Assembly (NCBI GenBank): GCA_031256725.1
Contig: JAIRQE010000024.1
Span: 16,360 to 48,359 of the forward strand
Reading direction: 5' to 3'
DNA: 32,000 bases
Source of the DNA: Propionibacteriaceae bacterium
GTDB lineage: Bacteria > Actinomycetota > Actinomycetes > Propionibacteriales > Propionibacteriaceae
Shown: positions 76-24,736 of the stretch, piece by piece
Layout: the number at the start of each line of letters is the position of its first letter
How positions within the stretch are numbered: position 1 is the first letter of the stretch
Notes under the pieces: generated by a model
The model's database searches: none
Told to the model about the DNA's origin: nothing
The model's input: only the letters and a program-made list of their open reading frames with translations
Made by a program: the position numbers and the translations under genes

Positions 76-834
76 CTAGCTGCTGAGTACAATCCTCGTG
101 AACAGCGAATCGAGTTCCTCCCATCCGGGGTTGGGTTCACCTGGAAGGGCTGCAATTCGAGAATCAAGAATTGGAAGAGTTGTCTCAATGTGCTGGTTGA
201 GAGCCTCAATTCTGGGTACCTTCTTCTTCTCAGGAGTATTGACTTTGGCCTCAAGCAGGGCCTCAGTGTTGGCCGTCAGATTGGCGTCGGCTTGCGCGGA
301 AACTAGATCAGCAAAAAGAACTGGCGGTGGAGTCTTCCGATCAAGTATCCATTGGCAAGCAAGAATAGGGCGCAAGACATACAGATACTTCTTGAGTGTG
401 ACAGTGTCCCCTCGAAGATGTTCACGATAGTTGCCTGCAGCCATACTGAAATAGTGGTGAAGTGCCGATTTTGCCTGAAAGTACAACGCACTCACCTCGC
501 GTACCCACTCCCACTCAGTGGTGGTGCGATAGATGACTGGGGAGTTCATCCACTCGAATAGGGTCGGATTCGAGCCCCGCATTAACCTCAGGGTCTTATC
601 AAGATCCCATCCATTAATATCAAGAACCTCATCTAATTGCCACTCAATGACATCCCGTGTCTTTCCGAGTCGCCAGTAGAAATCTGGCTTACGTACATAG
701 ATAAAACGTACGTCATAATCACTGTCCGGGGAGGCAAAACCCCAAGCTCGCGAACCTGATTCAACAGCATGAAGGATACGGACCGACTCATTGGTCTCAA
801 TCTCTGTCAACTTCTCTGCAATAATTTCCAGCAT
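76..834 (-). CDS. Pol-beta-superfamily nucleotidyltransferase domain protein (YcgL / pfam10127 RlaP-like predicted nucleotidyltransferase)
   Basis: 252-aa ORF. The N-terminal HAVESGSRAWGFASPDSDYDVRFIY fits the minimal NTase motif G[SG]-x(9-13)-DxD. The rest is a helical C-terminal region typical of this family. Family assignment is from memory. Confidence 0.7.
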   Translation of the reverse strand: MLEIIAEKLTEIETNESVRILHAVESGSRAWGFASPDSDYDVRFIYVRKPDFYWRLGKTRDVIEWQLDEVLDINGWDLDKTLRLMRGSNPTLFEWMNSPVIYRTTTEWEWVREVSALYFQAKSALHHYFSMAAGNYREHLRGDTVTLKKYLYVLRPILACQWILDRKTPPPVLFADLVSAQADANLTANTEALLEAKVNTPEKKKVPRIEALNQHIETTLPILDSRIAALPGEPNPGWEELDSLFTRIVLSS

Positions 835-1106
835 CTCTTTAGTCTAATAGCCCGCCCACCCACGAGAAGGTTCATGACGTTGTCTGGCAAAAGGTGATCT
901 ATGGAATCTGGGGCAACCAGTGACTCACCAAACCACGGTCCATTATTGAGGCTGCACCCGAAGAACTCCAAGGACTTTACGAGGCAATCCTTCTCTCGTT
1001 GATACGTCCCCTGACACCTCCTCGCAGTGATGAGACATTGAGGGTGCAAGCAGTACCACCGAGTACACTTCCTCACGAGGTGCCCATGGGAGTCACCCGG
1101 ATTGGA

Positions 1107-1892
1107 ATGAAGATGATTGTTGCCCCTATGACTGGCCCTTGGGCTGTACTCGTCTTGGTGATGGCTGTGACTGGAGTCACAATCCACTTCGTATTCCGCA
1201 AGCGTGAACGCGATGTCAGACGCCGAGCACTCCTCATCTTTGCGCTAGTCAACCTGGGGTTCTCCATCACCTTCCACCTGACTTATATGATCAGCCCACC
1301 ACCTGAGGGCTTCCCAATCTTCCAGAATCTTCCCCTACATCTGTGTACCCTCATGAGTTGGTTGATGCCGTTCGCAGTGTGGTTCGACTGGCGGCCACTG
1401 CGGGCAGTCATCTTCTTCCCTGGCGCTCTCGCTGGGATGGCAGCATTGTTTTCTGCCGCCCCATCGTATTGGTACTATGGACTCTTTGACCTTCACACCT
1501 TCTTCTGGGTCAGCCATGGTTTCAACGCGGTCATCCCCTTCCTTCTAGCCTCCCTCCAGTTGTACCGGCCGAAGCTCATTGAGGCTGCTCTTGCTGCCTT
1601 GTACATCTTCATTGCTGCGCTGCTAATCCTCCCGATCACACTGATCTTCCGGGCTTGGGTGGACCCTGGTACGAACTACTTCTATGTCTTCGACCCCGAG
1701 GGCGCTGTCGTCCTAGAGTTCTTCAAGAACCTCATCCCACTCCCAGTCATCTACCTGATCCCACTACTGATCGTGGCTATTCCCGTCATGATGGGCCAGT
1801 ACGGAATCTACCGCCTAGCGAACCGAAGCCATCTCTCCAAAGAGACCTTGACCGAAACTATTGAAGCAACCGCCGACGCTACTTCCGCTTAG
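1107..1892 (+). CDS. Polytopic integral membrane protein, YwaF/TIGR02206-like
   Basis: The ORF spans 999..1892. I prefer the ATG at 1107 (MKMIVAPMTGPWAVLVLV...) because the first TM helix starts there and the 36 upstream codons are hydrophilic and Pro-rich. It is strongly hydrophobic throughout, with several apparent TM helices. Motifs LPLHLC, GALAGMAAL, YRP and NYFY resemble the YwaF family as I recall it. Confidence 0.6.
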   Translation: MKMIVAPMTGPWAVLVLVMAVTGVTIHFVFRKRERDVRRRALLIFALVNLGFSITFHLTYMISPPPEGFPIFQNLPLHLCTLMSWLMPFAVWFDWRPLRAVIFFPGALAGMAALFSAAPSYWYYGLFDLHTFFWVSHGFNAVIPFLLASLQLYRPKLIEAALAALYIFIAALLILPITLIFRAWVDPGTNYFYVFDPEGAVVLEFFKNLIPLPVIYLIPLLIVAIPVMMGQYGIYRLANRSHLSKETLTETIEATADATSA

Positions 1893-3918
1893 TGTACTCA
1901 CTCAGGGATCTGGTACGGAGGAAACTCTCGCCCACTATGGCGTACACCTTCGCAGCCGTTTCTACCTCTGACAAGGGTACATACTCGTCGGGACTGTGGG
2001 CTTGGGTGAGGTCCCCAGGACCATAGACGGCTCCGGTGATTCCTTGTCGGGCGAGCAACTCCACCTCACAGTACCCACGGAATAAGGCCGATTCAGCAGT
2101 CGTACCTGTGACTTCATGGTGGGCGCGCTCTAAGCCCTCAGCGAGAGTGGAATCCTCACCAGCCTGCCATGGGGAGAAGGATTGCTCACACACGAGGTCG
2201 GCGTCGATGTCGTTATCTGCGCAGACTTTGGCGAAGATCCGACGTACCTCGCTGATGACTTCCTCGATATCCTCGCCTGGGAAAACCTGCCGGTCGAAGG
2301 CGATCCGGCAGGTGTCTGGTACGAAGGTGACCCCCACTCCCCCTTCAATGACACCAAGATTCACGCTGGGATCATGAGGGAAACCAAGTGTGGCTCCAAG
2401 CCCGCGCAAGGACTCATGGTACTCCTGGAGTGCAGCCACGATTGTGGTCATCTTCACGATGGCATTGTCACCACGTTCAGCCATTCCTGTATGCGATGAG
2501 CGCCCTCGTACGACCGCTGTGAACTCTGCCGCACCCTGCAAGGCCGAGGCCACCTGGAGCGAGGTTGGTTCGCCCACGATTGCCTGAGTGCAGTTCTTGA
2601 GGGTACCCGCGTTAATCAGCGCTTGGGTACCCTTGAACCAGACTTCCTCATCAATGACTGCGGTGAGCATCAGGCTTCGGTGACGCGGTACCTCGGCTTT
2701 GACGATGGCTTCAATAGCGGCCACCATGGCGGCAAGACCGCCCTTCATGTCACAGGTTCCCCGGCCATAGACCTTGCCATCAATGATCTCCCCACCCAAT
2801 GGGTCGGTTGTCCACAGGCCCAGATCCCCAATAGCAACCGTATCGACATGCCCATTGAACAGCAGGCATTCCTCGGATTCCCCATGCAATACCGCCACAA
2901 CATTCGGGCGACCAGGTTCGACCTCGTGAAGCTCCACATCAAGGCCACATCTGGCTAAACGCTCCGCGATCAACTGGGCCGCTTCCCCTTCCCGACCAGG
3001 CGGATTCTCGGAGTTGGCGCGTACCAAATCTGTGAGGAAGGTACCCAAGGCTTGGGAATCCACGAAGTCGGCTGCAGTACGAGGTTCAGTTGGGTGTACA
3101 GAACTTGGAAGTGGAGTACCAGAGGTCACCTTTGTGGCAGTCGCCTTGGTTGAAGGTACTCCCCGGATGGACTTCAACAGGTGGCTGGACAGTTCAATAA
3201 AACGGGGATGGGATTGCATCTCCAAACGCCGTGGCCGAGGAAGATCAACCTCAACTTGGGTGTGAATGCGACCGGGCCTCGGGGTCATGGTCATCACGCG
3301 GTCAGAGATGTACACCGCTTCTTCGATGTCGTGGGTGACGAAGAGTACGGTCAGACGATGGGTCTCCCAGACCTCAGTGAGAAGCTCCTGCATCTCGTGA
3401 CGGGTCAGAGCATCCAGGGCACCGAAGGGCTCATCCATGAGCAGGATCTCTGGACGATAGCTCAGTGAACGGGCGAGGGCAACACGCTGCTGCATCCCAC
3501 CAGAGAGTTGGGCGGGGTAATGATCCTCGAAACCTAGAAGACCCACCAATTCCAGATGTTCACGGGCAACCTCACTACGTTGGGTAGCAGTAAGGGGTTC
3601 ACCACGCAAGGCGAACTCGACATTTTTGCGGGCGGTCAGCCATGGCAACAAGGTTGCATGTTGGAAGACCACTCCCCTGTCCCGACCAGGGCCAGTGACT
3701 GGTTCCCCGCTCACGATGACTTCACCAGTGGTGGGTTCAGTCAAACCAGCAATGATCGATAGGAGGGTGGATTTCCCGCAACCGGAGACACCCACCAGGG
3801 AGACAAACTCGTTCTCACCCAGGGTGAGATCAATCTCCTCAAGGGCGCTGACAGATCCGAATCTCTTTGACAGGGATCGAATTTCGACTCTGGGTGTGAC
3901 AGGATTCGTGCTCATCAT
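1879..3918 (-). CDS. Fusion protein: NitT/TauT-family ABC transporter ATP-binding domain (aa 1-~252), S/T/P-rich linker, then M20-family metallo-amidohydrolase (ArgE/DapE/YlmB-like, aa ~284-679)
   Basis: One uninterrupted 679-aa ORF. The NBD carries Walker A GVSGCGKST, signature LSGGMQQR, Walker B ILLMDEP and H-loop VTHD. The linker is VPSTKATATKVTSGTPLPSSVHPTEPRTAADF. The M20 part carries HVDTV, GRGTCDMKGG, VIDEE and a C-terminal AHSPDE. The start overlaps the permease stop (ATGATGA at 3912-3918). Confidence 0.85.
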   Translation of the reverse strand: MMSTNPVTPRVEIRSLSKRFGSVSALEEIDLTLGENEFVSLVGVSGCGKSTLLSIIAGLTEPTTGEVIVSGEPVTGPGRDRGVVFQHATLLPWLTARKNVEFALRGEPLTATQRSEVAREHLELVGLLGFEDHYPAQLSGGMQQRVALARSLSYRPEILLMDEPFGALDALTRHEMQELLTEVWETHRLTVLFVTHDIEEAVYISDRVMTMTPRPGRIHTQVEVDLPRPRRLEMQSHPRFIELSSHLLKSIRGVPSTKATATKVTSGTPLPSSVHPTEPRTAADFVDSQALGTFLTDLVRANSENPPGREGEAAQLIAERLARCGLDVELHEVEPGRPNVVAVLHGESEECLLFNGHVDTVAIGDLGLWTTDPLGGEIIDGKVYGRGTCDMKGGLAAMVAAIEAIVKAEVPRHRSLMLTAVIDEEVWFKGTQALINAGTLKNCTQAIVGEPTSLQVASALQGAAEFTAVVRGRSSHTGMAERGDNAIVKMTTIVAALQEYHESLRGLGATLGFPHDPSVNLGVIEGGVGVTFVPDTCRIAFDRQVFPGEDIEEVISEVRRIFAKVCADNDIDADLVCEQSFSPWQAGEDSTLAEGLERAHHEVTGTTAESALFRGYCEVELLARQGITGAVYGPGDLTQAHSPDEYVPLSEVETAAKVYAIVGESFLRTRSLSEYTKRK

Positions 3919-4709
3919 CGTACCTTCTCGTAACGGAAAAGCATACGACCAATAGCCCTCATGATTTGGTCGAAGATCAACCCGAGGAGACCCAGGACCA
4001 CCAGGTACCCGATGATGGTGTCTGTGGCGAAATAACGTTGGGCAACGGTGATTCGATACCCCATACCGCCACTGGCGGCGACCAGTTCAGCGACGACCAG
4101 CCAGGTCCAGGCCCATCCGAGGGTGATCCTCAAAGTGTCGAAGATCCGGGGCCACGCGGCGGGGAAAACGATCCTTGCGAGGATCTGGTGGCGTTTCATT
4201 CCCAGGGTTTCACCCAGGTGGATCATGGATTGGGGTACCTGATGGACGGCATCGGTGATCATGAGCACCTGCTGGAAGAAGGTACCCATCCAGATGATGG
4301 CGAACTTCTGTGAATCACCTGTCCCCACCCAGAGGATCGACAGTGGCACAAAGGCAACCACTGGCATATAACGGACAAAGTCGAAGAGAGGTTCCAACCC
4401 TGCTCGGATCCTTGCGGACATCCCCATGAAGGGGCCGATCGCCAGGGCCATCACAGTGGCGAGGAGGTACCCGATGGTGATCCGATAGACGGACAACCCA
4501 ATGTCGCTCCACAGTTCACCATTCTTGGCTCTGACCACCAGGGAACCGATGACATCCCCAGGGCTGGGAAGGAACAGACTGGGAACAAGTCCGGCTGCGG
4601 TGACCGCAAACCAGACCAGCCCCAATACTGTGAAGGTTCCAAGTGTGATGACCAGATACTGACGTCTGGAGATCTTGGCCCGTACCCGGGAACCTCTGTT
4701 CGACACCAC
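3915..4709 (-). CDS. ABC transporter permease (NitT/TauT family, SsuC/TauC/ThiX-like)
   Basis: 264-aa ORF with a GTG start preceded by AAGGA. It is a multi-TM protein with a BPD-transporter-like core (MGTFFQQVLMITDAV...LGMKRHQILARIVFPAAWPRIF, an EAA-loop-like segment). It is translationally coupled to the downstream ATPase. Confidence 0.85.
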   Translation of the reverse strand: MVSNRGSRVRAKISRRQYLVITLGTFTVLGLVWFAVTAAGLVPSLFLPSPGDVIGSLVVRAKNGELWSDIGLSVYRITIGYLLATVMALAIGPFMGMSARIRAGLEPLFDFVRYMPVVAFVPLSILWVGTGDSQKFAIIWMGTFFQQVLMITDAVHQVPQSMIHLGETLGMKRHQILARIVFPAAWPRIFDTLRITLGWAWTWLVVAELVAASGGMGYRITVAQRYFATDTIIGYLVVLGLLGLIFDQIMRAIGRMLFRYEKVR

Positions 4710-4714
4710 GTTCC

Positions 4715-5698
4715 TTAGCTGAGGTACTGTGCGTCGATCGCTTGATCAGGATCGGCAGAACCACTCAACAAACCAGCGGTGACTGCAACCTCTTTGACCG
4801 CAGGGAGGGTGGCCGTACGATACTCGCCATCCAACAAGCGCTGGTTGTCGGAGAGACTGTAGAAGATCACACCATCGAAGGCAGTGACAAGATCTGCAGG
4901 ATCCTCACCAACACCACGGGCGATGATGGCGCGACCATCCTCAACATTGGCGTTGTAATAGTCAACGGCCTGACCCCAGGATGCGATGAGTGCCTTCACA
5001 GCATCAGCGTTCTCGGCAGCAAACTTGTCGGAAACCATCAATACATCCGAGATGAGACCCTGCTTGGCGCTCGCATCATAGATGACATGCATGTCTGAGT
5101 TCTCAGCCAAGGCGGAGGTGATATAGGGCTCATAGGTCACTGCGGCAGGTACCTGACCAGCAATCACAGCAGCACCAGCATTAGCTGCACCCATGGGCAC
5201 CTTCTCAATGTCAGTGATCGTCATCCCAGCCTCAGCCAGTGCATAGTTCAATAGGAGATCGGAGGTTGCGCCCTCTTCATAGGCGACCTTCTTGCCTTTC
5301 AGATCGGCGACTGTTGTGATCTCACTCGTGGTGATAATGGCATCGGCCGATGTGGCAGCGTCCTCAAGAAGTACGATCTTGGCTTCGACTCCAGATTCGA
5401 TCATCAGTAGCGCCCCATGGGAGGCAACATTGAGAGCATCAACTCGGCCACCAGCCAAAGCAGCCAACATATCGGCATCAGCCTCGAAGTCGGTCAACGT
5501 AACATCCAACCCATTCTCGGCGAAGAAGCCCTTCTCTTGGGCAATGTACCAGGCTCCATATCCCAGCCATGGTTGAATAGCAATTGACACCTTCGTCAAG
5601 CCTTCATCCTCAGTCTTGTCATCAGCGGTAGTACATCCACCCATGAATCCAGTAGCCAAGAGAGCTAAAGAAATCAACATAACCTTGGGCATGCGCAT
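4715..5698 (-). CDS. ABC substrate-binding lipoprotein, NMT1/THI5-like (sulfonate/nitrate/taurine/ThiY family)
   Basis: 327-aa ORF. Signal peptide plus lipobox MLISLALLATGFMGGC. The periplasmic-binding fold pattern (IQPWLGYGAWYIAQEKGFF...GLDV, ADLKGKKVA) is typical of the NMT1/SsuA family. It is the first gene of the 3-gene operon. Confidence 0.8.
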   Translation of the reverse strand: MRMPKVMLISLALLATGFMGGCTTADDKTEDEGLTKVSIAIQPWLGYGAWYIAQEKGFFAENGLDVTLTDFEADADMLAALAGGRVDALNVASHGALLMIESGVEAKIVLLEDAATSADAIITTSEITTVADLKGKKVAYEEGATSDLLLNYALAEAGMTITDIEKVPMGAANAGAAVIAGQVPAAVTYEPYITSALAENSDMHVIYDASAKQGLISDVLMVSDKFAAENADAVKALIASWGQAVDYYNANVEDGRAIIARGVGEDPADLVTAFDGVIFYSLSDNQRLLDGEYRTATLPAVKEVAVTAGLLSGSADPDQAIDAQYLS

Positions 5699-5861
5699 AT
5701 CGCGGCACCTTTCTTTGTAAGTTCAGGTGATAAACCTAGCTAAGTTATGTTACGAAACATTGACGATAGTGACGATGGTGAATTCCTCGTCCTGGGCTAC
5801 CATGAGAACCTGGTTCAGTTTGCTCTGCACCCCACCATCCATCTTGGAGGACATCGCTTTT

Positions 5862-7091
5862 ATGTTCGGTACACCTGAAGTCCTAGCTCCCGCCGGCAAT
5901 CCGGAACGTTTGGATGCTGCCATTCGCTATGGCGCGAATGCGGTCTACCTTGCGGGAAGACAGTACGGTTTGCGCTCTGCTGCTGGGAACTTTGATGACG
6001 AGCAATTAGCTCAAGCAGTGAGTACTGCCCACGCACATGGGGTTCATGTCTACATCACCTGCAATACTCTTCCACGCGATGATGAGTTGGATGGACTCCC
6101 GGCGACCATGGAGTACTGGCAAGAGATCGGAGTCGACGCCATCATTGTGGCTGACCTGGGGGTCTTGAACCTGGCCAAGCACCATGCACCTCAGTGCGCG
6201 ATCCATATGTCCACACAAACTGGCATTGTCAATAGCCTCACAGCGCGAGAGTTGCATGACATGGGGGCCTCCCGGGTGGTACTTGCTCGCGAGTTGTCCA
6301 TGGACGAGATCGCCGGGATTCGCGAACGTACCCCGCCAGAACTCGAACTGGAAGCCTTCGTACACGGGTCAATGTGTATGGCCGTCTCAGGGCGCTGCAT
6401 GATGTCGGCTGCCATGACGAACCGTGACGCCAACCGCGGCAATTGCACCCAGCCCTGTCGATGGAGTTACACCATCGTCGAAGAGAAACGTCCAGGGCAA
6501 TACATGAGTGTCGAGGAGGATGCCTCCGGTACCTATATCTTTAACGCTGAGGACCTCAATATGGTTGAGCATCTGTCTGCCCTCACAAGAGCTGGGGTTA
6601 CCTCCTTCAAAATCGAGGGACGCGCCAAATCACCCTTCTATGTTGCCGTCATCACCAACGCCTATCGCGTGGCGGTCGACGGCCTAGTTGCCTCAGGTTT
6701 CGACCCAGACTACCGACCCGCCCCCTGGGTCATTGAGGAACTCAACAAGGTCTCCCATCGCCCCTATGGCACAGGTTTCTTCTTCGGCCCACCTTCCCAG
6801 TCAACCAATTTCGGAGGGTACGTACGCGACTACTCTCTCGCCGCAGTTGTTGAAGGCTGGGCCGATGGGAGGTTGTACCTCACTCAGCGCAACAGATTCC
6901 TGGCAGGCCAAGCCTTGGAGGTGCTCCTGCCTGGGCGAGAACCCGTGTGCTTGATGGCCGAGGATCTGCGTGACGGAGACGGCGAACCTATCGATGCTGC
7001 ACGCCACCCCATGATGCCAGCCTCCATCCGCTCTGGTACGAGCCTGCCGCCGGGAAGTTTTGTACGTATGGAGATGGCGAAATCTCGATAG
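5862..7091 (+). CDS. U32-family 'peptidase' with 4-Cys Fe-S motif (TrhP/RlhA/UbiU-type family)
   Basis: The ORF spans 5727..7091. The ATG at 5862 (MFGTPEVLAPAGNPERL, the canonical U32 N-terminus) is preceded by GGAGGA at 5846-5851. The motif C-x6-C-x15-C-x3-C (CMAVSGRC...NCTQPC) is encoded at 6375-6458. Confidence 0.85.
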   Translation: MFGTPEVLAPAGNPERLDAAIRYGANAVYLAGRQYGLRSAAGNFDDEQLAQAVSTAHAHGVHVYITCNTLPRDDELDGLPATMEYWQEIGVDAIIVADLGVLNLAKHHAPQCAIHMSTQTGIVNSLTARELHDMGASRVVLARELSMDEIAGIRERTPPELELEAFVHGSMCMAVSGRCMMSAAMTNRDANRGNCTQPCRWSYTIVEEKRPGQYMSVEEDASGTYIFNAEDLNMVEHLSALTRAGVTSFKIEGRAKSPFYVAVITNAYRVAVDGLVASGFDPDYRPAPWVIEELNKVSHRPYGTGFFFGPPSQSTNFGGYVRDYSLAAVVEGWADGRLYLTQRNRFLAGQALEVLLPGREPVCLMAEDLRDGDGEPIDAARHPMMPASIRSGTSLPPGSFVRMEMAKSR

Positions 7092-7176
7092 GATGAAGAT
7101 GCGCAGTCCATGGGTACGCTTGAAGACGCGCAGGTCCATCGTGGAAAAGGATCGGATCACGAGCTAGTCTAAGATC

Positions 7177-7818
7177 ATGACCGACTATCCCGATTATCCC
7201 CGTGAGAGGCGACCCATCCCTGCTTCCCTGAGGTCACATGCAGCCCAGAATCCTGGTGGGTACGTTGCGGAGATCGACAAAACCATGATCGGTAATCCCG
7301 ATGGGTATGTACCCAATGAGGCCATCTTAGGGCTCTTCTGCATTGGTACCGATGGGCAAGCTACTGGCGAATTCATCGTCAACCCCCATCATGGTCAAGT
7401 CAAGGATGACTTCAGACTATTGGAGGACTCCAATCATTGGCTCGGCTGGATGCCCGACAAACCCGCCCTAGCCATTCGCAAGATCCTGGAAGAGGTACTC
7501 AATGAACAGGTCGCCGGGTCAGTCCTGGATTGGGTAAAGGTCCTTAAAGAACCAGTATTCCTCACCTCAGGAATTCGCTCCCCCCAAGACTCCACAAAAA
7601 TCATCGTGCGACGTACCGCTTTGGCCATAGTCTTCGCTTTAGCGGTACGCCCACCCTCCGAAAAGATCCAAATCCTCACCGGAGCATTCTCCTGGGTAGT
7701 CACAGGCCTCAATCAGGGCCCGAGACGGGATCGCACCTGGCTGGACCTAGGAATGACACGCATACAAGCAGAACAAGCCCTAGAAAAACGCATCTTCGAG
7801 GATGAAGGAACCAACTAA
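7177..7818 (+). CDS. Hypothetical protein (conserved-actinobacterial-looking, no function assignable)
   Basis: 213-aa ORF with coding-like composition in a clean intergenic context. The N-terminal segment GGYVAEIDKTMIGNPDGYVPNEAILGLFCIGTDGQATGEFIVNPHH looks like a recurring actinobacterial motif, but I cannot name the family with confidence. Confidence 0.55.
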   Translation: MTDYPDYPRERRPIPASLRSHAAQNPGGYVAEIDKTMIGNPDGYVPNEAILGLFCIGTDGQATGEFIVNPHHGQVKDDFRLLEDSNHWLGWMPDKPALAIRKILEEVLNEQVAGSVLDWVKVLKEPVFLTSGIRSPQDSTKIIVRRTALAIVFALAVRPPSEKIQILTGAFSWVVTGLNQGPRRDRTWLDLGMTRIQAEQALEKRIFEDEGTN

Positions 7819-7898
7819 TCTGAGATTCATCCCCCCTCAATTTCTTAGAACCCAACCCCATCGCGTACAATGATTCTCCGGTGCGTAGACGCACCAAT

Positions 7899-7975
7899 GG
7901 TACCTATAGCTCAGCTGGTAGAGCATCTGGTTGTGGTCCAGAGGGTCGCCGGTTCAAGTCCGGTTAGGTACCCCA
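7899..7975 (+). tRNA. tRNA-His (anticodon GTG), with encoded G-1 and encoded CCA
   Basis: Hand-folded cloverleaf. 8-bp acceptor including G-1:C73 (GGTACCTA/TAGGTACC), D arm GCTC-AGCTGGTA-GAGC, anticodon arm TCTGG-TTGTGGT-CCAGA, T arm GCCGG-TTCAAGT-CCGGT, then CCA at 7973-7975. Confidence 0.9.
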
Positions 7976-7990
7976 CAGGAAGATCGAGCG

Positions 7991-8024
7991 CAGCGCGAAC
8001 GTGGTTCGCGCTGTTGTGGTTTTC
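7991..8024 (+). terminator. Rho-independent terminator after tRNA-His
   Basis: Perfect 10-bp stem cagcgcgaac / gttcgcgctg (7991-8000 / 8004-8013) with a 3-nt loop, followed by ttgtggttttc. Confidence 0.6.
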
Positions 8025-8223
8025 AGAGAGGGCGCGGCGGATGCTCGCATCCGTGAGCGACCGCTCAGAAAACCACGCAATGTGAGCAAAGCTCGCATTG
8101 CCGAGAACAAGCAGACGCACCTCAATGTCAGATGACTGACGTATCTGACACTATTCATGCTTGTGGGGTTTCTGTGTCACGAGATACGTCTCCTGACATC
8201 CCACGCAGACAAGTCTGCAACCA

Positions 8224-8595
8224 TTACTCTTCGTAGGGCGGCAGGACTAACTCATCTTGATTCTCCAACTCACGTATACAATTCATGATGTCTTCGTACT
8301 TTGGTTGAGAAACAATAACAGAAACAGGCTTCCCGTGAAAGGTCACAAGTACATCGTGTGTCGCCGACATTTTCACGACTCGACTGAAATAATGTTTCGC
8401 ATCCGTAAGCGGGAAAACAGCATCCAACTCAAGATGTGGGAAGACTTTCTCATATTTCTGAGTTGAGACAATGATTGCCATAGGCTTTCCGTGATGGGTC
8501 ACAAGTACATCCTCTGTTTGCGACTTAGTAATCAACTGACCTAGTAAATGCTTTGCATCAGAAGTAGAAAAAGTGGCTGCATTCGATATGTCCAT
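8224..8595 (-). CDS. Tandem-duplicated Phd/YefM-type antitoxin-like protein (two antitoxin N-domains in one chain), orphan
   Basis: 123-aa ORF in AT-rich DNA. Residues 7-51 and 59-103 are ~50% identical to each other. Each matches the Phd/YefM N-domain pattern (x-DAKxxhxxlh...dVlVTxHGKPvxvIVSxxxYE). No adjacent toxin ORF. Confidence 0.7.
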   Translation of the reverse strand: MDISNAATFSTSDAKHLLGQLITKSQTEDVLVTHHGKPMAIIVSTQKYEKVFPHLELDAVFPLTDAKHYFSRVVKMSATHDVLVTFHGKPVSVIVSQPKYEDIMNCIRELENQDELVLPPYEE

Positions 8596-8633
8596 GACAT
8601 CAACCTACCTGCATATCAGCAGATATCCTAACG

Positions 8634-8661
8634 ATTATAAGTATTTACTCTATAATCTGAA
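8634..8661 (-). promoter_or_regulatory. Candidate sigma-70-type promoter for the tandem-Phd gene
   Basis: On the minus strand: TTCAGA (plus 8656-8661), a 16-nt spacer, then TATAAT (plus 8634-8639). This sits 38 nt upstream of the ATG. The leader contains GATAT-N5-GATAT and an EcoRV palindrome (plus 8611-8628), a possible autoregulatory operator. Confidence 0.4.
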
Positions 8662-8740
8662 TTACCTAAGACCTTCATCAACCGTCAGTCCGTACCAAAA
8701 CTCCACCACGGCACCCGATAAACGGCATCATCGCCGACCC

Positions 8741-8780
8741 GGCAACGAAAAGGGGGTGCGCCAGAGGAGTTTCGCACCTC
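8741..8780 (-). terminator. Rho-independent terminator downstream of eda
   Basis: The minus-strand RNA reads gaggugcg-aaacuccucugg-cgcacccc followed by cuuuucguu. The 8-bp stem is plus 8753-8760 / 8773-8780. Confidence 0.55.
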
Positions 8781-8857
8781 AGTATTACTGATACTAATTA
8801 GCTTTAACGTGAATCCGGTCAGGGATCAGGGAATCTGAGTACAGACATCCCAAGGTT

Positions 8858-9475
8858 TCAACCCAAAGAGGCTACGATCCCTAGGGCCTCGCGTACGAGA
8901 GCGGCGATGCCATCGAAGTCTCCGGTTTCCAGAAGATGTTGGGGTACCATCCATGAGCCGGCTACTGCTGGTACACAGGGAAGGCGCAGATAGCCAGCCA
9001 TATTTGAAGCTGAGACTCCACCAGTTGGCACGAACTGGGTTGTTGCAAAGGGAGCAGAGAGTCCAGCGATCCCCTCAGGGCCACCGAATCGATCTGCGGG
9101 GAAGAACTTGACTGTATTGATCCCAAGAGCCTGGGCCGCCATGATGTCTCCAGGGGTAATGCACCCTGGGAGGATCGGCTTTCCTTGAAGTTGAGCTTCA
9201 CGTACGATGTCTGCGCGAAGGCCTGGGCTTATCAGGAATTGTGCGCCTGATTCCACAGCAAATTCAACCTGGTCTGGTGTGACAACCGTACCTGCCCCTA
9301 CGGTCATCCCCTCAACCTCTGACATGATGGCAATGGACTCGGCAGCAGCCTCAGTCCTGAATGTAACCTCTGCAATGGGCAGACCTGCCTCGACTAGGGT
9401 TCGAGCCAAGGGGTAGGCATCCTCTGCGTCGTGGATAACAACGATGGGGATAATGCGATGGGCGAAAAGGTCCAT
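8858..9475 (-). CDS. eda: 2-dehydro-3-deoxyphosphogluconate / 4-hydroxy-2-oxoglutarate aldolase (KDPG aldolase)
   Basis: 205-aa ORF. Family pattern IIPIVVI..., LPIAEVTFRT, GAGTV, FLISPG, KFFPA and VPTGGV is characteristic of Eda. AGGAGG RBS upstream. Confidence 0.85.
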   Translation of the reverse strand: MDLFAHRIIPIVVIHDAEDAYPLARTLVEAGLPIAEVTFRTEAAAESIAIMSEVEGMTVGAGTVVTPDQVEFAVESGAQFLISPGLRADIVREAQLQGKPILPGCITPGDIMAAQALGINTVKFFPADRFGGPEGIAGLSAPFATTQFVPTGGVSASNMAGYLRLPCVPAVAGSWMVPQHLLETGDFDGIAALVREALGIVASLG

Positions 9476-18870: not shown

Positions 18871-20952
18871 TCACTCTATGACGCCAAGGGCACTCTTGGC
18901 CTCCGAGACTACACGGTCAGCGGTGATCCCGAATTCTTCATAGAGCTTGGAAGCCGCCGCTGAGGCTCCGAAATGGTCGATACCGATCTTCCGACCGTCG
19001 CTCCCACAGATTTCGGCCCACCCATACGTGACTCCAGCCTCCAGAGAAACCTTGACGGCTTCTGGAGGAATGACATCCATCCTATACGATTCTGGTTGAC
19101 GAGCGAACCACTCCAGGCATGGGGCCGAGACAACTCGGGTCGGTATCCCCTCCTTTTCCAAGGTCTCGCGAGCCGCCACAGCAATCTCCACCTCGGACCC
19201 TGTTGCGACGACAACAACTGCGGGGGTATCTGTACTCGAATCGATCAGTGTGTAGGCACCCTGAGCCACCTCGGATGCAGGCGCGAAACCTGTACCCTCA
19301 CTACGATCGAAGGTTGTCAAATCCTGGCGACTCAAGATGAGTGCTGTTGGATGATCCTTGATTTCCAGGATGAGTCTCCATGCTTCGGCGACCTCATTGG
19401 CATCAGCCGGACGGATCACATCGAGATTCGGGATGAGCCTCAAAGAGGCGATATGCTCCACAGGCTGATGGGTGGGGCCATCCTCCCCCACACCAATAGA
19501 GTCATGGGTCCACACGAAGATTGATGGAATCCCCGATAGGGCTGCAATCCTTGGGGGGGTTCTCATATAGTCAGAGAAGACCAGGAACGTACCACCATAG
19601 GCCCTTGTCAACCCGCTGTTCATTGCATTGAGTATCCCACCCATCGCATGTTCGCGGATACCGAAGTGGAGGGTACGTCCATTCGGATCAGGGGTCCAGT
19701 CTTGCGATCCACGGTGTGCAGGCAGGAAGGAGGGCTTCCCCTTCATAGTCGTGTTATTGGATCCAGCCAAATCTGAAGATCCACCCCAGAGTTCCGGTAC
19801 CACATCAGCTAAAGCGCTCAACACCTCTCCCGAAGCCGCGCGCGTCGACTTCTTCCCAGCAGGGAACTGAGACAAAGCAACATTGAGCCCAGAAGGCACC
19901 TTCCCAGCCAGGATTCGGTCAAGGAGTGCCTTTCCTTCCGGGTTTGCGCTAGCCCAAGCCTCAAACTTGGGGTCCCACAGGGTACGCGCAGTAGCTGCCC
20001 TCTTAGCTGCATTGGCCCTAGCGTGGGTGATCACCTCATCGGCTACATCGAAACTCTTCTCGGAATCCATACCGAGGTGGGTCTTCAGTGCAGCGACCTC
20101 CTCGGCCCCAATCTTGGCTCCGTGGATCGAATGGGATCCAGCCTTGTTCGGCAATGGCCATCCGATGACTGTGGTGACCTTAATGAAACTTGGGCGATCA
20201 GTGATTGCCTTGGCGGCTTCAATGGCCTGAAAAAGTTCTTCAACCTTCTCTTCGTAGGTGGTACCCCCATTGGTAAAGTCCACTGTTTGTACATGCCATC
20301 CATAAGCTTCATGACGTGCGACAACATCCTCGGTGAAGGCAATCACAGTGTCACCCTCAATGGAGATCCTATTGTCGTCATAGATGAGAATGAGGTTGCC
20401 TAGGTCCTGGGTTCCTGCCAAGGATGCTGCCTCTGAGGCGATCCCCTCCTGCATGTCCCCATCTCCACAAATGCAATAGACGAAATGGTCAAAGACCGAC
20501 TCCCCTGGCTTGGCGCTCGGATCGAACAGCGCCCTTTCCTTTCGGGAAGCCATCGCAAAACCGACAGCATTGGCGACACCTGCTCCGAGGGGACCTGTCG
20601 TACACTCCACTCCAGGAGTGTGACCATACTCTGGGTGTCCAGGAGTCAGAGCCCCCCAGGTACGAAATTGTTTGAGATCCTCCAGTTCGACACCATACCC
20701 GCCAAGATAAAGTTGAGTGTACTGAGTGAGCGAAGAATGCCCGATTGATAGTACGAAACGATCCCGGCCCAACCAGGTGGGATCACTCGGATCGGTATTC
20801 ATAACTTTCTGGTACAACAGGTACGCGATGGGTGCCACTGAGATCGCTGTCCCCGGATGTCCATTCCCGACTTTCTCAACTGCATCAGCCGCTAAAACTC
20901 GTGCAGTGTCGACTGCTCGTGCATCCAACTCATTCCAACTCCAGGTAGACAT
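18871..20952 (-). CDS. tkt: Transketolase
   Basis: 693 aa. GHPG thiamine-diphosphate motif region, GDGDMQEG, and THDSIGVGEDGPTHQPVEH. Confidence 0.92.
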   Translation of the reverse strand: MSTWSWNELDARAVDTARVLAADAVEKVGNGHPGTAISVAPIAYLLYQKVMNTDPSDPTWLGRDRFVLSIGHSSLTQYTQLYLGGYGVELEDLKQFRTWGALTPGHPEYGHTPGVECTTGPLGAGVANAVGFAMASRKERALFDPSAKPGESVFDHFVYCICGDGDMQEGIASEAASLAGTQDLGNLILIYDDNRISIEGDTVIAFTEDVVARHEAYGWHVQTVDFTNGGTTYEEKVEELFQAIEAAKAITDRPSFIKVTTVIGWPLPNKAGSHSIHGAKIGAEEVAALKTHLGMDSEKSFDVADEVITHARANAAKRAATARTLWDPKFEAWASANPEGKALLDRILAGKVPSGLNVALSQFPAGKKSTRAASGEVLSALADVVPELWGGSSDLAGSNNTTMKGKPSFLPAHRGSQDWTPDPNGRTLHFGIREHAMGGILNAMNSGLTRAYGGTFLVFSDYMRTPPRIAALSGIPSIFVWTHDSIGVGEDGPTHQPVEHIASLRLIPNLDVIRPADANEVAEAWRLILEIKDHPTALILSRQDLTTFDRSEGTGFAPASEVAQGAYTLIDSSTDTPAVVVVATGSEVEIAVAARETLEKEGIPTRVVSAPCLEWFARQPESYRMDVIPPEAVKVSLEAGVTYGWAEICGSDGRKIGIDHFGASAAASKLYEEFGITADRVVSEAKSALGVIE

Positions 20953-21071
20953 GACATCCCTTCAACTTCGGTTCATTGTCACTCCCCAAACGAGGAGGAT
21001 TTTCCACAAGCCAGCCTATCCGATTCACCGCAATCCAGCCCCCTTGGGTCCACCTCCGCTCCCCCCAAATC

Positions 21072-21086
21072 TTCGCGAATCGCGAA
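21072..21086. promoter_or_regulatory. Perfect 15-bp palindrome TTCGCGA-A-TCGCGAA upstream of tkt
   Basis: Read directly. It lies ~120 nt upstream of the tkt start codon. Function unknown. Confidence 0.3.
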
Positions 21087-21373
21087 AATCCTGGGCTTTC
21101 ACCGCGACGCGCCGATGTAGATGTGGAAAAGACTAGGTTTATCAAATAATGGACTGTATGCAGAAATAGGAATCAGAGGGAGAAACCCATCCTTTCCCCG
21201 AGATAACGAATCAATGCCCTCATCCGAGATATCGAGCGAGGTAGATACAAAGGCATCGAGCCACAACCCTGGCTCACGCCGTCAGACGTTCACCCAACGG
21301 GTGTTGCGTGATGGGGTACGTACCGTTGCCTTTGATAACCCCTAAACCACTCACCTCATTGCCTCTTTTCTTT

Positions 21374-21688
21374 TTAAGCTACCCGAAGTTCTTCTATAGG
21401 GTGTCGACGAGCAGCAATGATGGCTGGTACACCAGCAGCGGTCAGACTGACAGCAAGCGAAAGAACAATAACTGCCAAAGTGAACTGTCCACTAGGACAC
21501 AGATCGCCTAAAACGAGCAACAAGTATGCGATGCCTACACCGAGTGCTGCTCCAATGCTGGCAGAAATACGTCTCACCCGCCCCATCTGCGGTAACTCAC
21601 GCTCGTCTCTCGTGGCATCAACCAACTGTATTGGTAAAGTTCGCGCTTTCACTTGGTTAAAAACCCCATAATGGTGGCGGACAAGCAT
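21374..21688 (-). pseudogene. FtsX/MacB-type ABC permease C-terminal remnant (last two TM helices only)
   Basis: TRDERELPQMG resembles the ERxREIGxL loop after TM2. Two TM helices follow, then the family-typical tail PAIIAARRHPIEELRVA (compare ...AARLDPVEALR). No TM1, periplasmic domain or TM2 lies upstream. An internal ATG at 21586 could still give a 70-aa 2-TM peptide. Confidence 0.45.
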
Positions 21689-22184
21689 CAGTAGCAGCTA
21701 TAAAGTCTGGGCCATGAAAGACAAGTTCAACCGACTGGTATGGCTTTCGGCTAGGCGACTGAGCTAACCAATCCTCAACAAACTGCTGCTCACTCGGAGG
21801 CTCCGCAGAGTCGTAACCATGCTCCAATAAACACAGGTGATTCGCCACTTCAAGTGGATACAATCGATGATAGTCTTCAGCAGTTAATGGATCATTGAAA
21901 CCAACCTGCTCAGCACATCTTGCTTCGTCGGACTCATAAAGTGGCACTTGCTCTTTGGGTAAGGTAGGCCCCTCGATAGTGCCACCACTATATATGATCT
22001 CCCAACCAGCATCCTCCAAGCAATCCTGCAATTCACCCAGTTTCCCATATGTATGGGACGGTAGGGTTTGAGGAGGGCCACTTGAATTATCAGTCTGACC
22101 CTCCTCAACCAACGCACAACCAACAAGTACTAAGGCCACAGCTAGAACTCCAGCCACCCATACATTTTTACTTATTCGTCGCAT
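21657..22184 (-). CDS. Cys-rich secreted lipoprotein, hypothetical
   Basis: 175 aa. Signal peptide with a perfect lipobox (AVALVLVGC). Four further Cys, two of them in repeated xCLExxGW/Y contexts (QDCLEDAGWEI, HLCLLEHGYD). AT-rich codon usage. Confidence 0.6.
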   Translation of the reverse strand: MRRISKNVWVAGVLAVALVLVGCALVEEGQTDNSSGPPQTLPSHTYGKLGELQDCLEDAGWEIIYSGGTIEGPTLPKEQVPLYESDEARCAEQVGFNDPLTAEDYHRLYPLEVANHLCLLEHGYDSAEPPSEQQFVEDWLAQSPSRKPYQSVELVFHGPDFIAATDACPPPLWGF

Positions 22185-22639
22185 TTGATTACCTATCCTT
22201 ACGTCGCGCCTATCCGTGGGCTTGTCGTATTTTGAAAGGGGATGTTTTCTAGACCTCCCTCAATATCACCAAGATTACACCCCTCCCTCTGAAGAAAAAC
22301 AACGATGTCCATTATTCGGGCAAATCGAGATAGTTTTTATAAAATACACAACAAAATACGCTGAAGATTGCGGGAATCGAGCCATTTCCCGATGAAAGAC
22401 AATCTCAACTCAGCCATTGCGTTCCACCACCTGACGGGGGAATGCCAGATTAACGGTGGGCGGGCGTCCTGGCATTGTAAGTCGTCACTGGTTTCTAGCA
22501 GGTGTCTCACAAAAAGGTTGGTACGCCCATCCCAGTACAAAACTCAACTGCTAAATCCGCAAGAGTCGACCGATAAACGCTCGAGATTCCGAAGGGCTTT
22601 TCGAAGATATCGTAAAATCACCTCCCTGCTACTTCCTCA

Positions 22640-24736
22640 CTACGTATGGCGAAGATGTCGTACAACTGCACGGGTGAGACGGGCAGTGGTTGTACTAGAT
22701 ATGGGCGCTGGAGTCTCAGAGTTCGGGGAATACCATGTGGTCTCCAGATATTCGCGTACCTCATCCAGGGTTTGAGCGAGGTCTGGATCACAGCGCGTGG
22801 CTACCTTCTTCAAGGCAGACCTCACGGATGTACCTTCGGAAATGAGACCAACTTTGATTGCCTTGCGGCGAATGACTCGCCACGAGCGCTCAGGAGTGTA
22901 ACTGCGAACATAGGCTGTACGTACTCCAAACCCCACACCAGCAGCGATGAGTACACCCACTGCAAGTCCAAGAATCCACCCCAAACCACCAGAGGAAATT
23001 CCAGGATTCTCATTGTTGGGAGTACTCGGTTGGTTCGATGGAAGATCGCTAGGAACAATTGTCGAAACCCCATCAGGGGTGGTAGGACCATCACTGGGCT
23101 CAGGAGGGGATGTGGTTGGATCACCTGGTCCTGCTCCTGTGATGCTGGGTGTCGGCTCATAGCGTACCCACCCAAGTTCAGGGTAGAGGGCCTCTGGCCA
23201 CATGTGGGCATTCGTGTTCCTGACCTCGACCCAAGCATCAACATCACTTGGACTGACAAGGAACCCAATACTCACTCTCATAGGTATCCCCACCGACATC
23301 GCCATGACAGCCATTGCCGTTGAGAAGTGAATACAGTATCCCTGCTTATTCTGCAGAAAATCCCAGACCGGGTCACCTGTTGTCGTCCATGATGGGGACA
23401 GGGTGTACACAAATTCCGGTCCCCGAAGATAGGATTCGATGGCCGCCAACATCTCCCCTTGGGTACTCGCCGATCCAATGATTTCAACAGTGAAGTTACG
23501 AATCTCCTCCTGGTAGGGGGTATTCACCAACGGCAATGCATTAGGGCCAATGCCCCTATCAACATCAATCACAGTCAATCCGCTACGGTCCAAGACCGTT
23601 GACTGGATGGTATAGGTATCCCCACGTTGGATATCCCGAGTCGCCTGGAGGGAGTCTGTACCCAACTCGTAAGCAATCCCGAACCCAGAGGTACCCGTAA
23701 TCCCTCGTGGTCCGACTGTGGTGGGAAGGTACCTCCCCATCGGATTACGGATCTCCATATATACCTCACCATTGGGGCTCCACGGATCCTTGTCCGAGAT
23801 CATACGACCTTCGTCGCCCTCCCAGACCATCTGGTCATCATGGTAGACAGACCTCGCTCCAGGATCTGGGGTCCATACTGTACCCGAGAAGGAGGTCAAC
23901 GAGATCGCTCTCAAAGGCCCGTTGATCTTCCCTCGAACAAAGAGGATCACCTCATCCGACTCTGAGCGCAATTGATTCGACACATCAATGGGGCTGTTCA
24001 ACTGCACACCAGTGGAGTCTGAGTATTGTCCTCTCAATCTTTCAAACAGATCAGGCATTTCACCCCACCCAGGAAGAGATGGTGCTACTACGGTCGCCAC
24101 AAGCCCACAGATGACTCCCACGCTCACCACGGGTACTGACATGACTCGCAATCCTCGTGGTGTGGTCTGCATCCTTTGAGCCACAGCAACCAAGAAAAGA
24201 AAGGTCACCCCTGTCGCGATTGCCAACCCCAACCCCTGACTGGGATTACCAGCAATAAACAGTATCCAGCATCCCAAGATGGGCAATCCGGCCCACACTG
24301 GGCGCGCAGCCCCCAAAGAAAGGAAGACCACCAACAAACATACTGGCCCCAATCCGAAGACTGCCAATGGCATGAAGACCTCCGGGTTCGACACGGGACG
24401 CATGTACTGACTCAAAGCAAGGATGGAGTCCCTCACAGCCCAGGCAACATCGGTCAGTGTCGAAGGTGTGGGGAAGGTCAATGGTGTACCACGGACAACG
24501 AAACACAGGTACCAAGCCCAGACGAATATCCCCAACACAGCCGAGACGAGAACCGAGATTCGTGGAAACCTTTCGGTAAACCGAGGTATGGTACCCAGCC
24601 ATACAACAACGGTAAACAGAATCGGAAGAGCAATCATATGCCCTTGCCATAACCCCGCCACCATGAGGTTTGTGAGCCCCATACATGTGAATATGAGGGA
24701 TACACAGCTGAACAGTGCAATCAGCCCACGATTCAT
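22640..24736 (-). CDS. Transglutaminase-like membrane protein (TgpA-like: N-terminal multi-TM region, TGase core, Pro-rich linker, TM helix, DUF4129-like C-terminus)
   Basis: 698 aa. TGase core QGYCIHFSTAMAVMAMSVGIPMRVSIGF (Cys468) ... NAHMWPEALYPELGWVRYEPT (His511, Glu527). ATGA overlap with the upstream DUF58 gene. Confidence 0.85.
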   Translation of the reverse strand: MNRGLIALFSCVSLIFTCMGLTNLMVAGLWQGHMIALPILFTVVVWLGTIPRFTERFPRISVLVSAVLGIFVWAWYLCFVVRGTPLTFPTPSTLTDVAWAVRDSILALSQYMRPVSNPEVFMPLAVFGLGPVCLLVVFLSLGAARPVWAGLPILGCWILFIAGNPSQGLGLAIATGVTFLFLVAVAQRMQTTPRGLRVMSVPVVSVGVICGLVATVVAPSLPGWGEMPDLFERLRGQYSDSTGVQLNSPIDVSNQLRSESDEVILFVRGKINGPLRAISLTSFSGTVWTPDPGARSVYHDDQMVWEGDEGRMISDKDPWSPNGEVYMEIRNPMGRYLPTTVGPRGITGTSGFGIAYELGTDSLQATRDIQRGDTYTIQSTVLDRSGLTVIDVDRGIGPNALPLVNTPYQEEIRNFTVEIIGSASTQGEMLAAIESYLRGPEFVYTLSPSWTTTGDPVWDFLQNKQGYCIHFSTAMAVMAMSVGIPMRVSIGFLVSPSDVDAWVEVRNTNAHMWPEALYPELGWVRYEPTPSITGAGPGDPTTSPPEPSDGPTTPDGVSTIVPSDLPSNQPSTPNNENPGISSGGLGWILGLAVGVLIAAGVGFGVRTAYVRSYTPERSWRVIRRKAIKVGLISEGTSVRSALKKVATRCDPDLAQTLDEVREYLETTWYSPNSETPAPISSTTTARLTRAVVRHLRHT

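Follow-up and report, generated by a model that had tools for sequence, protein, structure and literature searches.

Phd of phage P1 and YefM of E. coli carry one domain per chain, followed by a toxin-binding tail of 25–35 residues, and the gene of the toxin (Doc or YoeB) lies immediately downstream. In both YefM and Phd, DNA is bound by the dimer of N-domains, and the operators are palindromic (PMC4803016). Two arginines, R10 and R31, are needed for DNA binding in the E. coli YefM, with R31 being essential (PMC4803016). Only one of the two tails of the YefM dimer binds YoeB, and Doc bridges Phd dimers, which results in conditional cooperativity (PMC4803016). The regulation of the Phd-Doc and YefM-YoeB modules depends on dimerisation, toxin-coupled folding and toxin-bridged cooperativity.

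Solo antitoxin genes are very common (PMC2701414), and orphan antitoxins have likewise been reported to be common (PMC7192599). Those that have been described keep the single-domain architecture. Natural single-chain versions of dimeric DNA binders are found in MraZ, which has two AbrB-like domains, and in the F-plasmid TraY, which has two ribbon-helix-helix units. The protein described here shares with these the principle of a normally homodimerising domain duplicated in tandem within one chain. MraZ and TraY differ from it in that they have other folds and form widespread, characterised families, whereas this protein is a singleton known from sequence alone. Like the orphan antitoxins, it is an antitoxin homologue without an adjoining toxin; orphan status is common among such homologues, and the unusual part is the tandem architecture only. 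From its sequence and from a structural model, it can be proposed with moderate confidence that the protein is a toxin-independent, single-chain Phd/YefM pseudo-dimer that acts as a DNA-binding repressor.

The window, which is the whole stretch of DNA analysed, comprises 32,000 nucleotides from a Propionibacteriaceae MAG. The ORF listing and translation place a complete ORF with an ATG start at 8224–8595 on the minus strand, and its 123-amino acid product is present exactly as the sequence-only reading had given it. This product is NCBI MDR0489346.1, annotated as a “prevent-host-death family antitoxin”, and is labelled P0001 here, with the relatives recovered in searches labelled P0002 and so forth. 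A word-index protein search returned MDR0489346.1 as its sole match. P0001 is a singleton from one metagenome sample, which counts against the repressor reading. A second, independent assembly (the Logan assembly of SRR14710887) aligns to window positions 790–9459 over 8670 bases with zero mismatches. Given this agreement and a nucleotide identity of only 61% between the two copies, it is excluded that the tandem is an assembly artefact.

By sequence and by predicted fold, P0001 belongs to the Phd/YefM family. The PF02604 profile (PhdYeFM_antitox) matches the whole protein in two stretches with 62.7 bits, and with 34.2 and 32.7 bits, respectively, each half on its own exceeds the curated cut-off of 29.8; the two domains first assigned by eye are thereby borne out. 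The NCBIfam profile TIGR01552 (phd_fam) also matches in two stretches, with 55.1 bits against a cut-off of 20.8. The likeness to Phd and YefM lies in these matches, as both halves exceed the PF02604 and TIGR01552 cut-offs, and in the same predicted N-domain fold. Unlike Phd and YefM, the window protein combines two domains in its chain with a single short tail, and its gene lacks a toxin partner. The Pfam alignment stops at position 56 of the 74 profile positions, and only around 20 residues follow the second core.

The hand alignment on which the tandem was first recognised is reproduced by BLASTP (E 1e-16): residues 7–51 and 59–103 align without gaps at an offset of 52 codons and are identical at 23 of 45 positions. 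The cores stand as first described, but the repeat unit is probably slightly longer, extending to an ELD/ELEN motif. The sequences CTTGAGTTGGAT (HLELD, copy 1) and CGTGAGTTGGAG (RELEN, copy 2) match in 10 of 12 bases when a two-codon gap is allowed. Repeat unit 1 (aa 7–58; 8422–8577, minus strand) consists of the Phd/YefM N-domain core, a shortened helix 3 and the linker FPHLELD, with the Pfam match spanning aa 8–50. Repeat unit 2 (aa 59–110; 8266–8421, minus strand) consists of the core with a full-length helix 3. It is followed by the acidic C-terminal tail of aa 111–123, ENQDELVLPPYEE, encoded together with the stop codon at 8224–8265 (minus strand). This short tail, also noted in the sequence-only reading, is the sole tail in the protein and copy 1 is without any.

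At the DNA level, a search of the window for the 15-nt block GGTCACAAGTACATC found exactly two occurrences, as had been claimed, with 0 expected in shuffles. The instance in copy 1 (8497–8511) encodes DVLVT and the other lies in copy 2 (8341–8355). Over the two copies the nucleotide identity is 61%, and at this level of identity a DNA-level repeat finder reported no internal repeat in the gene.

A structural model was obtained with AlphaFold2 from an alignment of 81 rows (A5), which has depth for copy 2 only; MAFFT puts every single-domain homologue on the same half. The mean pLDDT with this alignment was 78.4 and the pTM 0.57, while a run from the single sequence gave a pLDDT of 36. Copy 2 is modelled with a pLDDT above 90 and copy 1 with 65–76, and the value for copy 1 counts against the repressor reading. 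Both halves are predicted to adopt a beta-alpha-alpha-beta-beta-alpha arrangement, which is the Phd N-domain fold. The third helix of copy 1 appears in the model as a single turn (aa 46–49) followed by a nine-residue coil; that of copy 2 extends over aa 97–114. A pTM of 0.57 is compatible with an intramolecular pseudo-two-fold packing of the halves but is not decisive.

One half of the model was compared with solved structures using Foldseek, and it matched the Phd-fold chains 2odk, 4zm0_B, 3hs2, 9g12_C and 3g5o_A with a probability of 1.00. The rmsd for these five chains was 1.3–2.4 over 48–54 columns, with 2odk giving a target-normalised TM-score (TMt) of 0.80 at an rmsd of 1.3. The chain 4zm0_B comes from a Phd-operator complex. 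When the domain profile was searched against the sequences of solved structures, the best matches were the M. tuberculosis RelB1 (9g12_C, E 1.4e-05) and RelF/Rv2865 (3g5o_A, E 2.5e-04). The next-closest by sequence are the metagenomic families of P0004/P0006 and P0013, which are Phd-fold antitoxins of RelE/ParE toxins. Unlike the window protein, RelB1, RelF and proteins of the P0004/P0006 and P0013 type are single-domain proteins of 82–96 amino acids with long tails, followed by PF05016 toxins.

The residues known to matter in YefM were located through alignment A4, which includes an approximate YefM sequence. The position of R10 is a lysine in both halves. At the position of R31, copy 1 has His33 and copy 2 has Phe85, which counts against the repressor reading.

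According to the sequence-only reading, no toxin-sized ORF precedes or follows the gene. No toxin or toxin remnant was indeed found, but two same-strand ORFs of 64 and 69 amino acids do exist downstream (7964–8158 and 7911–8120). Both cross the tRNA-His gene in antisense orientation, and neither matches a Pfam toxin family, the sole match being a sub-threshold one of 17 bits to a transposase HTH. Stop-free six-frame pieces of at least 20 amino acids from the flanks (7960–8240 and 8580–8880), of which the ten longest were scanned with Pfam, contained no toxin families. There were no toxin domains in the small ORFs or intergenic-gap ORFs of the 32-kb window, no match to the PADLOC defence-system library and no remnant of a toxin pseudogene in either flank. 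ParE, RelE, YoeB and Doc were covered by tblastn searches, for which two ParE queries were genuine sequences and three other toxin queries approximate ones. The only notable match, with Doc at window positions 125–379 (E 0.017), was rejected, being a shadow ORF opposite an RlaP gene with no Fic/Doc Pfam match. With no toxin gene adjoining it or lying within the 32-kb window, the locus falls outside the definition of a type II toxin-antitoxin module. The RlaP-family gene itself (76–834, minus strand; PF10127, 295 bits) encodes an RNA-repair-pathway nucleotidyltransferase, and the ORF opposite it that gave rise to the spurious Doc match lies at 98–430 on the plus strand.

The gene is located between eda, encoding the KDPG/KHG aldolase (8858–9475, minus strand; PF01081, 204.6 bits), and a convergent tRNA-His(GTG) gene (7900–7975, plus strand), after which there is a terminator-like hairpin (7990–8014). 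Between eda and tRNA-His, a stretch of around 700 bp (8100–8800) has a GC content of 0.385–0.48 versus 0.52–0.60 in the flanks. It contains solely the phd-like gene, with a GC content of 0.43 against 0.54 for the window, and the upstream region with its promoter. By its composition, this stretch looks foreign to its flanks. Housekeeping genes make up the remainder of the window, for example those of ABC transporters and of a U32 peptidase. A search for a direct repeat of the tRNA-His 3′ end, which would mark an integration, gave only short, chance-level matches. The only related genome found, a Propionibacteriaceae MAG, has an eda gene with 71% identity that is followed by neither tRNA-His nor a phd-like gene; this eda locus says nothing about an insertion.

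Several other features of the window can be recorded. Between the tRNA-His hairpin (7990–8014) and the 3′ end of the phd-like gene there is an inverted repeat (8016–8035/8057–8076) with 20-nt arms that are 85% complementary and with no Rfam match. It could be the terminator of the phd-like gene or a leftover of an inserted segment. Directly upstream of tRNA-His, a 213-amino acid ORF (7177–7818, plus strand) has neither a Pfam nor a PADLOC match. Within a transporter operon, the 679-amino acid product of 1879–3918 (minus strand; L001 5545–7581) matches the Pfam families ABC_tran, Peptidase_M28, Peptidase_M20 and M20_dimer; an ABC ATPase fused to a metallopeptidase in this way is unusual. The region 20952–22640 (about 1.7 kb) has a low coding density, with only small ORFs of 55–175 amino acids, none at the Pfam cut-off; the sole weak match there, on a 104-amino acid ORF, scores 16 bits against a cut-off of 26.8 bits.

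The closest relative of P0001 is P0002, a single-domain protein of 67 amino acids from the ENA metagenome assemblies ERZ27257339 and ERZ27257340. It is identical to copy 2 at 29 of 45 positions and to copy 1 at 19 of 45, and it carries the same acidic tail type as P0001. The two proteins are alike in copy 2 identity, in the leader and start block, in the type of acidic tail and in the absence of a toxin. They differ in that P0002 has one domain and a different setting, being convergent with a Dam-like methyltransferase. On the two short contigs that carry it, P0002 is followed after 10 bp by this convergent D12-class (Dam-like) adenine methyltransferase gene and preceded by a divergent gene, with no toxin. 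Two more distant relatives do adjoin toxins. Downstream of P0006, an uncalled ORF matches PF05016, the ParE toxin family, with 44.4 bits, and P0013 lies directly upstream of a PF05016 gene. Because of these neighbours, the lineage of P0001 and P0002 is taken to descend from antitoxins of RelE/ParE-type toxins. The contig of P0006 holds a small toxin-antitoxin island (L004 1120–4612) with a Phd and PIN pair, an RHH and Fic pair, and P0006 with its ParE-family ORF. This last ORF, at about 4358–4612 on L004, was missed by the gene caller.

The ribosome-binding and start block of the gene, GTAGGTTGATGTCATGGA (8591–8608, minus strand), includes the ribosome-binding site AGGTAGG and is identical at 17 of 18 positions to the corresponding block of P0002 (L003 239–256). 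The block common to both genes reads GTAGGTTGATG(C/T)CATGGA. As this block is conserved with the toxin-less P0002, the toxin was lost before the P0001 and P0002 lineages diverged.

The divergence of the two copies was estimated with the Nei-Gojobori method over 45 codons with approximately 31 synonymous sites, which are near saturation, and this counts against the repressor reading. Between copy 1 and copy 2, pN was 0.31 and pS 0.65, giving a dN/dS of about 0.27 with synonymous sites near saturation; between copy 2 and P0002, pN was 0.20 and pS 0.50, for a dN/dS of about 0.28. In both copies, non-synonymous sites have changed less than synonymous sites. With a nucleotide identity of 61% between the copies, the duplication is old by sequence. 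Copy 2 is nearer to P0002 than to copy 1, and thus either the duplication is older than the split of P0001 and P0002, or copy 1 has evolved faster; the ~31 synonymous sites do not separate these possibilities. As copy 2 is without the MDISNA start and copy 1 is without a tail, the tandem arose by internal duplication and not by the fusion of two complete genes.

The sequence-only reading had proposed a check of whether the tandem recurs. Among 1.84 billion representative proteins, no other tandem relative came up at the sensitivity of phmmer, the five matches being P0001 itself, one spurious protein and three single-domain proteins. The spurious match, P0003 (1936 amino acids, 14 stretches), is a repetitive eukaryote-like protein. 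P0101 is also 123 amino acids in length but was set aside, as it has a single domain and an unrelated extension. A broad N-domain profile search (A4) listed only proteins of up to 97 amino acids; it missed P0001 (151 bits locally) and P0010 (77.7 bits), both of which score above its top-listed matches, and this incomplete list is not a valid negative. Searches with tblastn found nothing in plasmids and no tandem in phages, where the only match was a single-domain RelB-like gene of the Gordonia phage Bunnybear. Nothing relevant was found in the literature on tandem or duplicated Phd/YefM domains. The tandem Phd architecture is real and apparently very rare, and tandem Phd proteins in other lineages are possible.

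When the model was compared by Foldseek with the viral models of BFVD, it aligned along its whole length with three proteins. Two of these, A0A7S5UXR8 (139 amino acids) and A0A8S5MKF9 (115 amino acids), align over more than 130 columns with probabilities of 0.96 and 0.72 and low TM-scores, and they may, going by their models, be two-domain Phd-like phage proteins. The third, AB2_54 of the Acinetobacter phage IME-AB2, was discarded because it has one Phd-like domain with a helical tail and no Pfam match.

The single-chain repressor could have arisen as follows. The ancestor probably resembled P0002, a short gene for a single-domain protein, and consisted of the leader, an MxI start, a lone N-domain and an acidic tail. 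Long ago, about 156 bp (52 codons) of it would have been duplicated internally in tandem, which doubled the dimerising, DNA-binding N-domain, and a linker of 7–9 residues stands in for the C-terminal helix and tail of copy 1. The two halves are proposed to fold back on each other and to form the two-fold N-domain dimer within one chain. With two N-domains, a short linker and a single tail, the minimal functional unit would be reproduced in one chain. Such a monomer may bind an operator and act as a repressor of its own promoter and perhaps of others. The covalent linkage would make the formation of the dimer independent of concentration and of a toxin co-repressor. A pseudo-dimer with a single tail could not support the conditional cooperativity that arises in Phd-Doc through toxin bridging. 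Nor would the operator have to be a symmetric palindrome, given that the identity between the halves is only 51%.

The most likely target would be the promoter region of the gene itself. A promoter-like sequence, TTCAGA-16 nt-TATAAT, lies approximately 38 nt upstream of the ATG (8634–8661, minus strand) and was identified by consensus match only, at 10 of 12 positions. Between its −10 element and the ribosome-binding site, an imperfect palindrome, GGATATCTGCTGATATGC (8611–8628, minus strand), was read from the sequence and is self-complementary at 14 of 18 positions. This palindrome is a candidate operator only, without statistical support and short enough to occur by chance. The leader of P0002 is without it, which counts against the repressor reading.

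A serious alternative, which is nonetheless judged unlikely, is that the protein is a trans-acting antitoxin or anti-addiction module. The acidic tail would bind and neutralise a RelE/ParE-type toxin whose gene lies at another place in the genome or arrives on a plasmid or phage, and the doubled N-domain would only stabilise the protein. The distant relatives P0013 and P0006 are true antitoxins with ParE-family toxins, and P0001 and P0002 have both retained the acidic tail. An arrangement of two N-domains with one tail is workable, as the YefM dimer uses one tail per YoeB (PMC4803016), and an anti-addiction role has been suggested for orphan antitoxins (PMC7192599). However, the Pfam match ends at profile position 56 of 74, leaving around 20 residues after the second core, and the 32-kb window contains no ParE, RelE, YoeB or Doc homologue. 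A protein that binds DNA could at the same time neutralise a ParE/RelE-type toxin in trans.

It is improbable that the locus is a decaying toxin-antitoxin remnant in which the toxin has been lost and a duplicated antitoxin gene persists without a function. An orphan gene in a small low-GC stretch beside a tRNA gene, known as a single copy in public data, would fit such a history, and solo antitoxin genes are very common (PMC2701414). Against this, the ORF is intact and both copies remain above the family cut-offs despite a nucleotide identity of 61%. Furthermore, pN is below pS between the copies and in the comparison with P0002, the leader and start block is kept in the toxin-less P0002, and the flanks hold no toxin pseudogene. 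The signal of selection and the conserved toxin-less relative make a functionless remnant less likely. The sequence-only reading had set a distinct architecture apart from a locus decaying after the deletion of its toxin, and more than a recent loss is indeed indicated: P0002 is also toxin-less and both copies have pN below pS.

Pairing between chains, whether by a domain swap or as a dimer of tandems that would bring four N-domains together in a tetramer-like assembly bridging two operator sites, is very improbable, for all that the linker is short (7–9 residues), copy 1 is without most of helix 3, the pTM of the model is only 0.57, and the M. tuberculosis YefM (3d55, among the Foldseek matches) crystallised as a tetramer.

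The importance of a single-chain pseudo-dimer repressor is limited in that it is a singleton from one metagenome and that tandem dimeric DNA binders have precedents in other folds (MraZ, TraY). If the halves form an intramolecular Phd-type dimer, the protein would be a natural single-chain version of the antitoxin DNA-binding module. As a covalent dimer with one tail, it would remove all three of the dependencies of Phd-Doc and YefM-YoeB regulation and would provide a natural test of the N-domain dimer alone. A stable monomeric Phd-fold binder with two independently evolvable half-sites could also be a useful scaffold.

It can be suggested tentatively that an antitoxin fold lost its toxin, fused its dimer halves by duplication and diverged, and that it is now a monomeric transcription factor with an asymmetric operator. 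In that case, P0002 would represent the single-domain intermediate in which the toxin was already lost, and there would be a documented route from a component of an addiction module to an ordinary regulator. The single-chain repressor, if true, would illustrate how orphan antitoxin genes are recruited as regulators.
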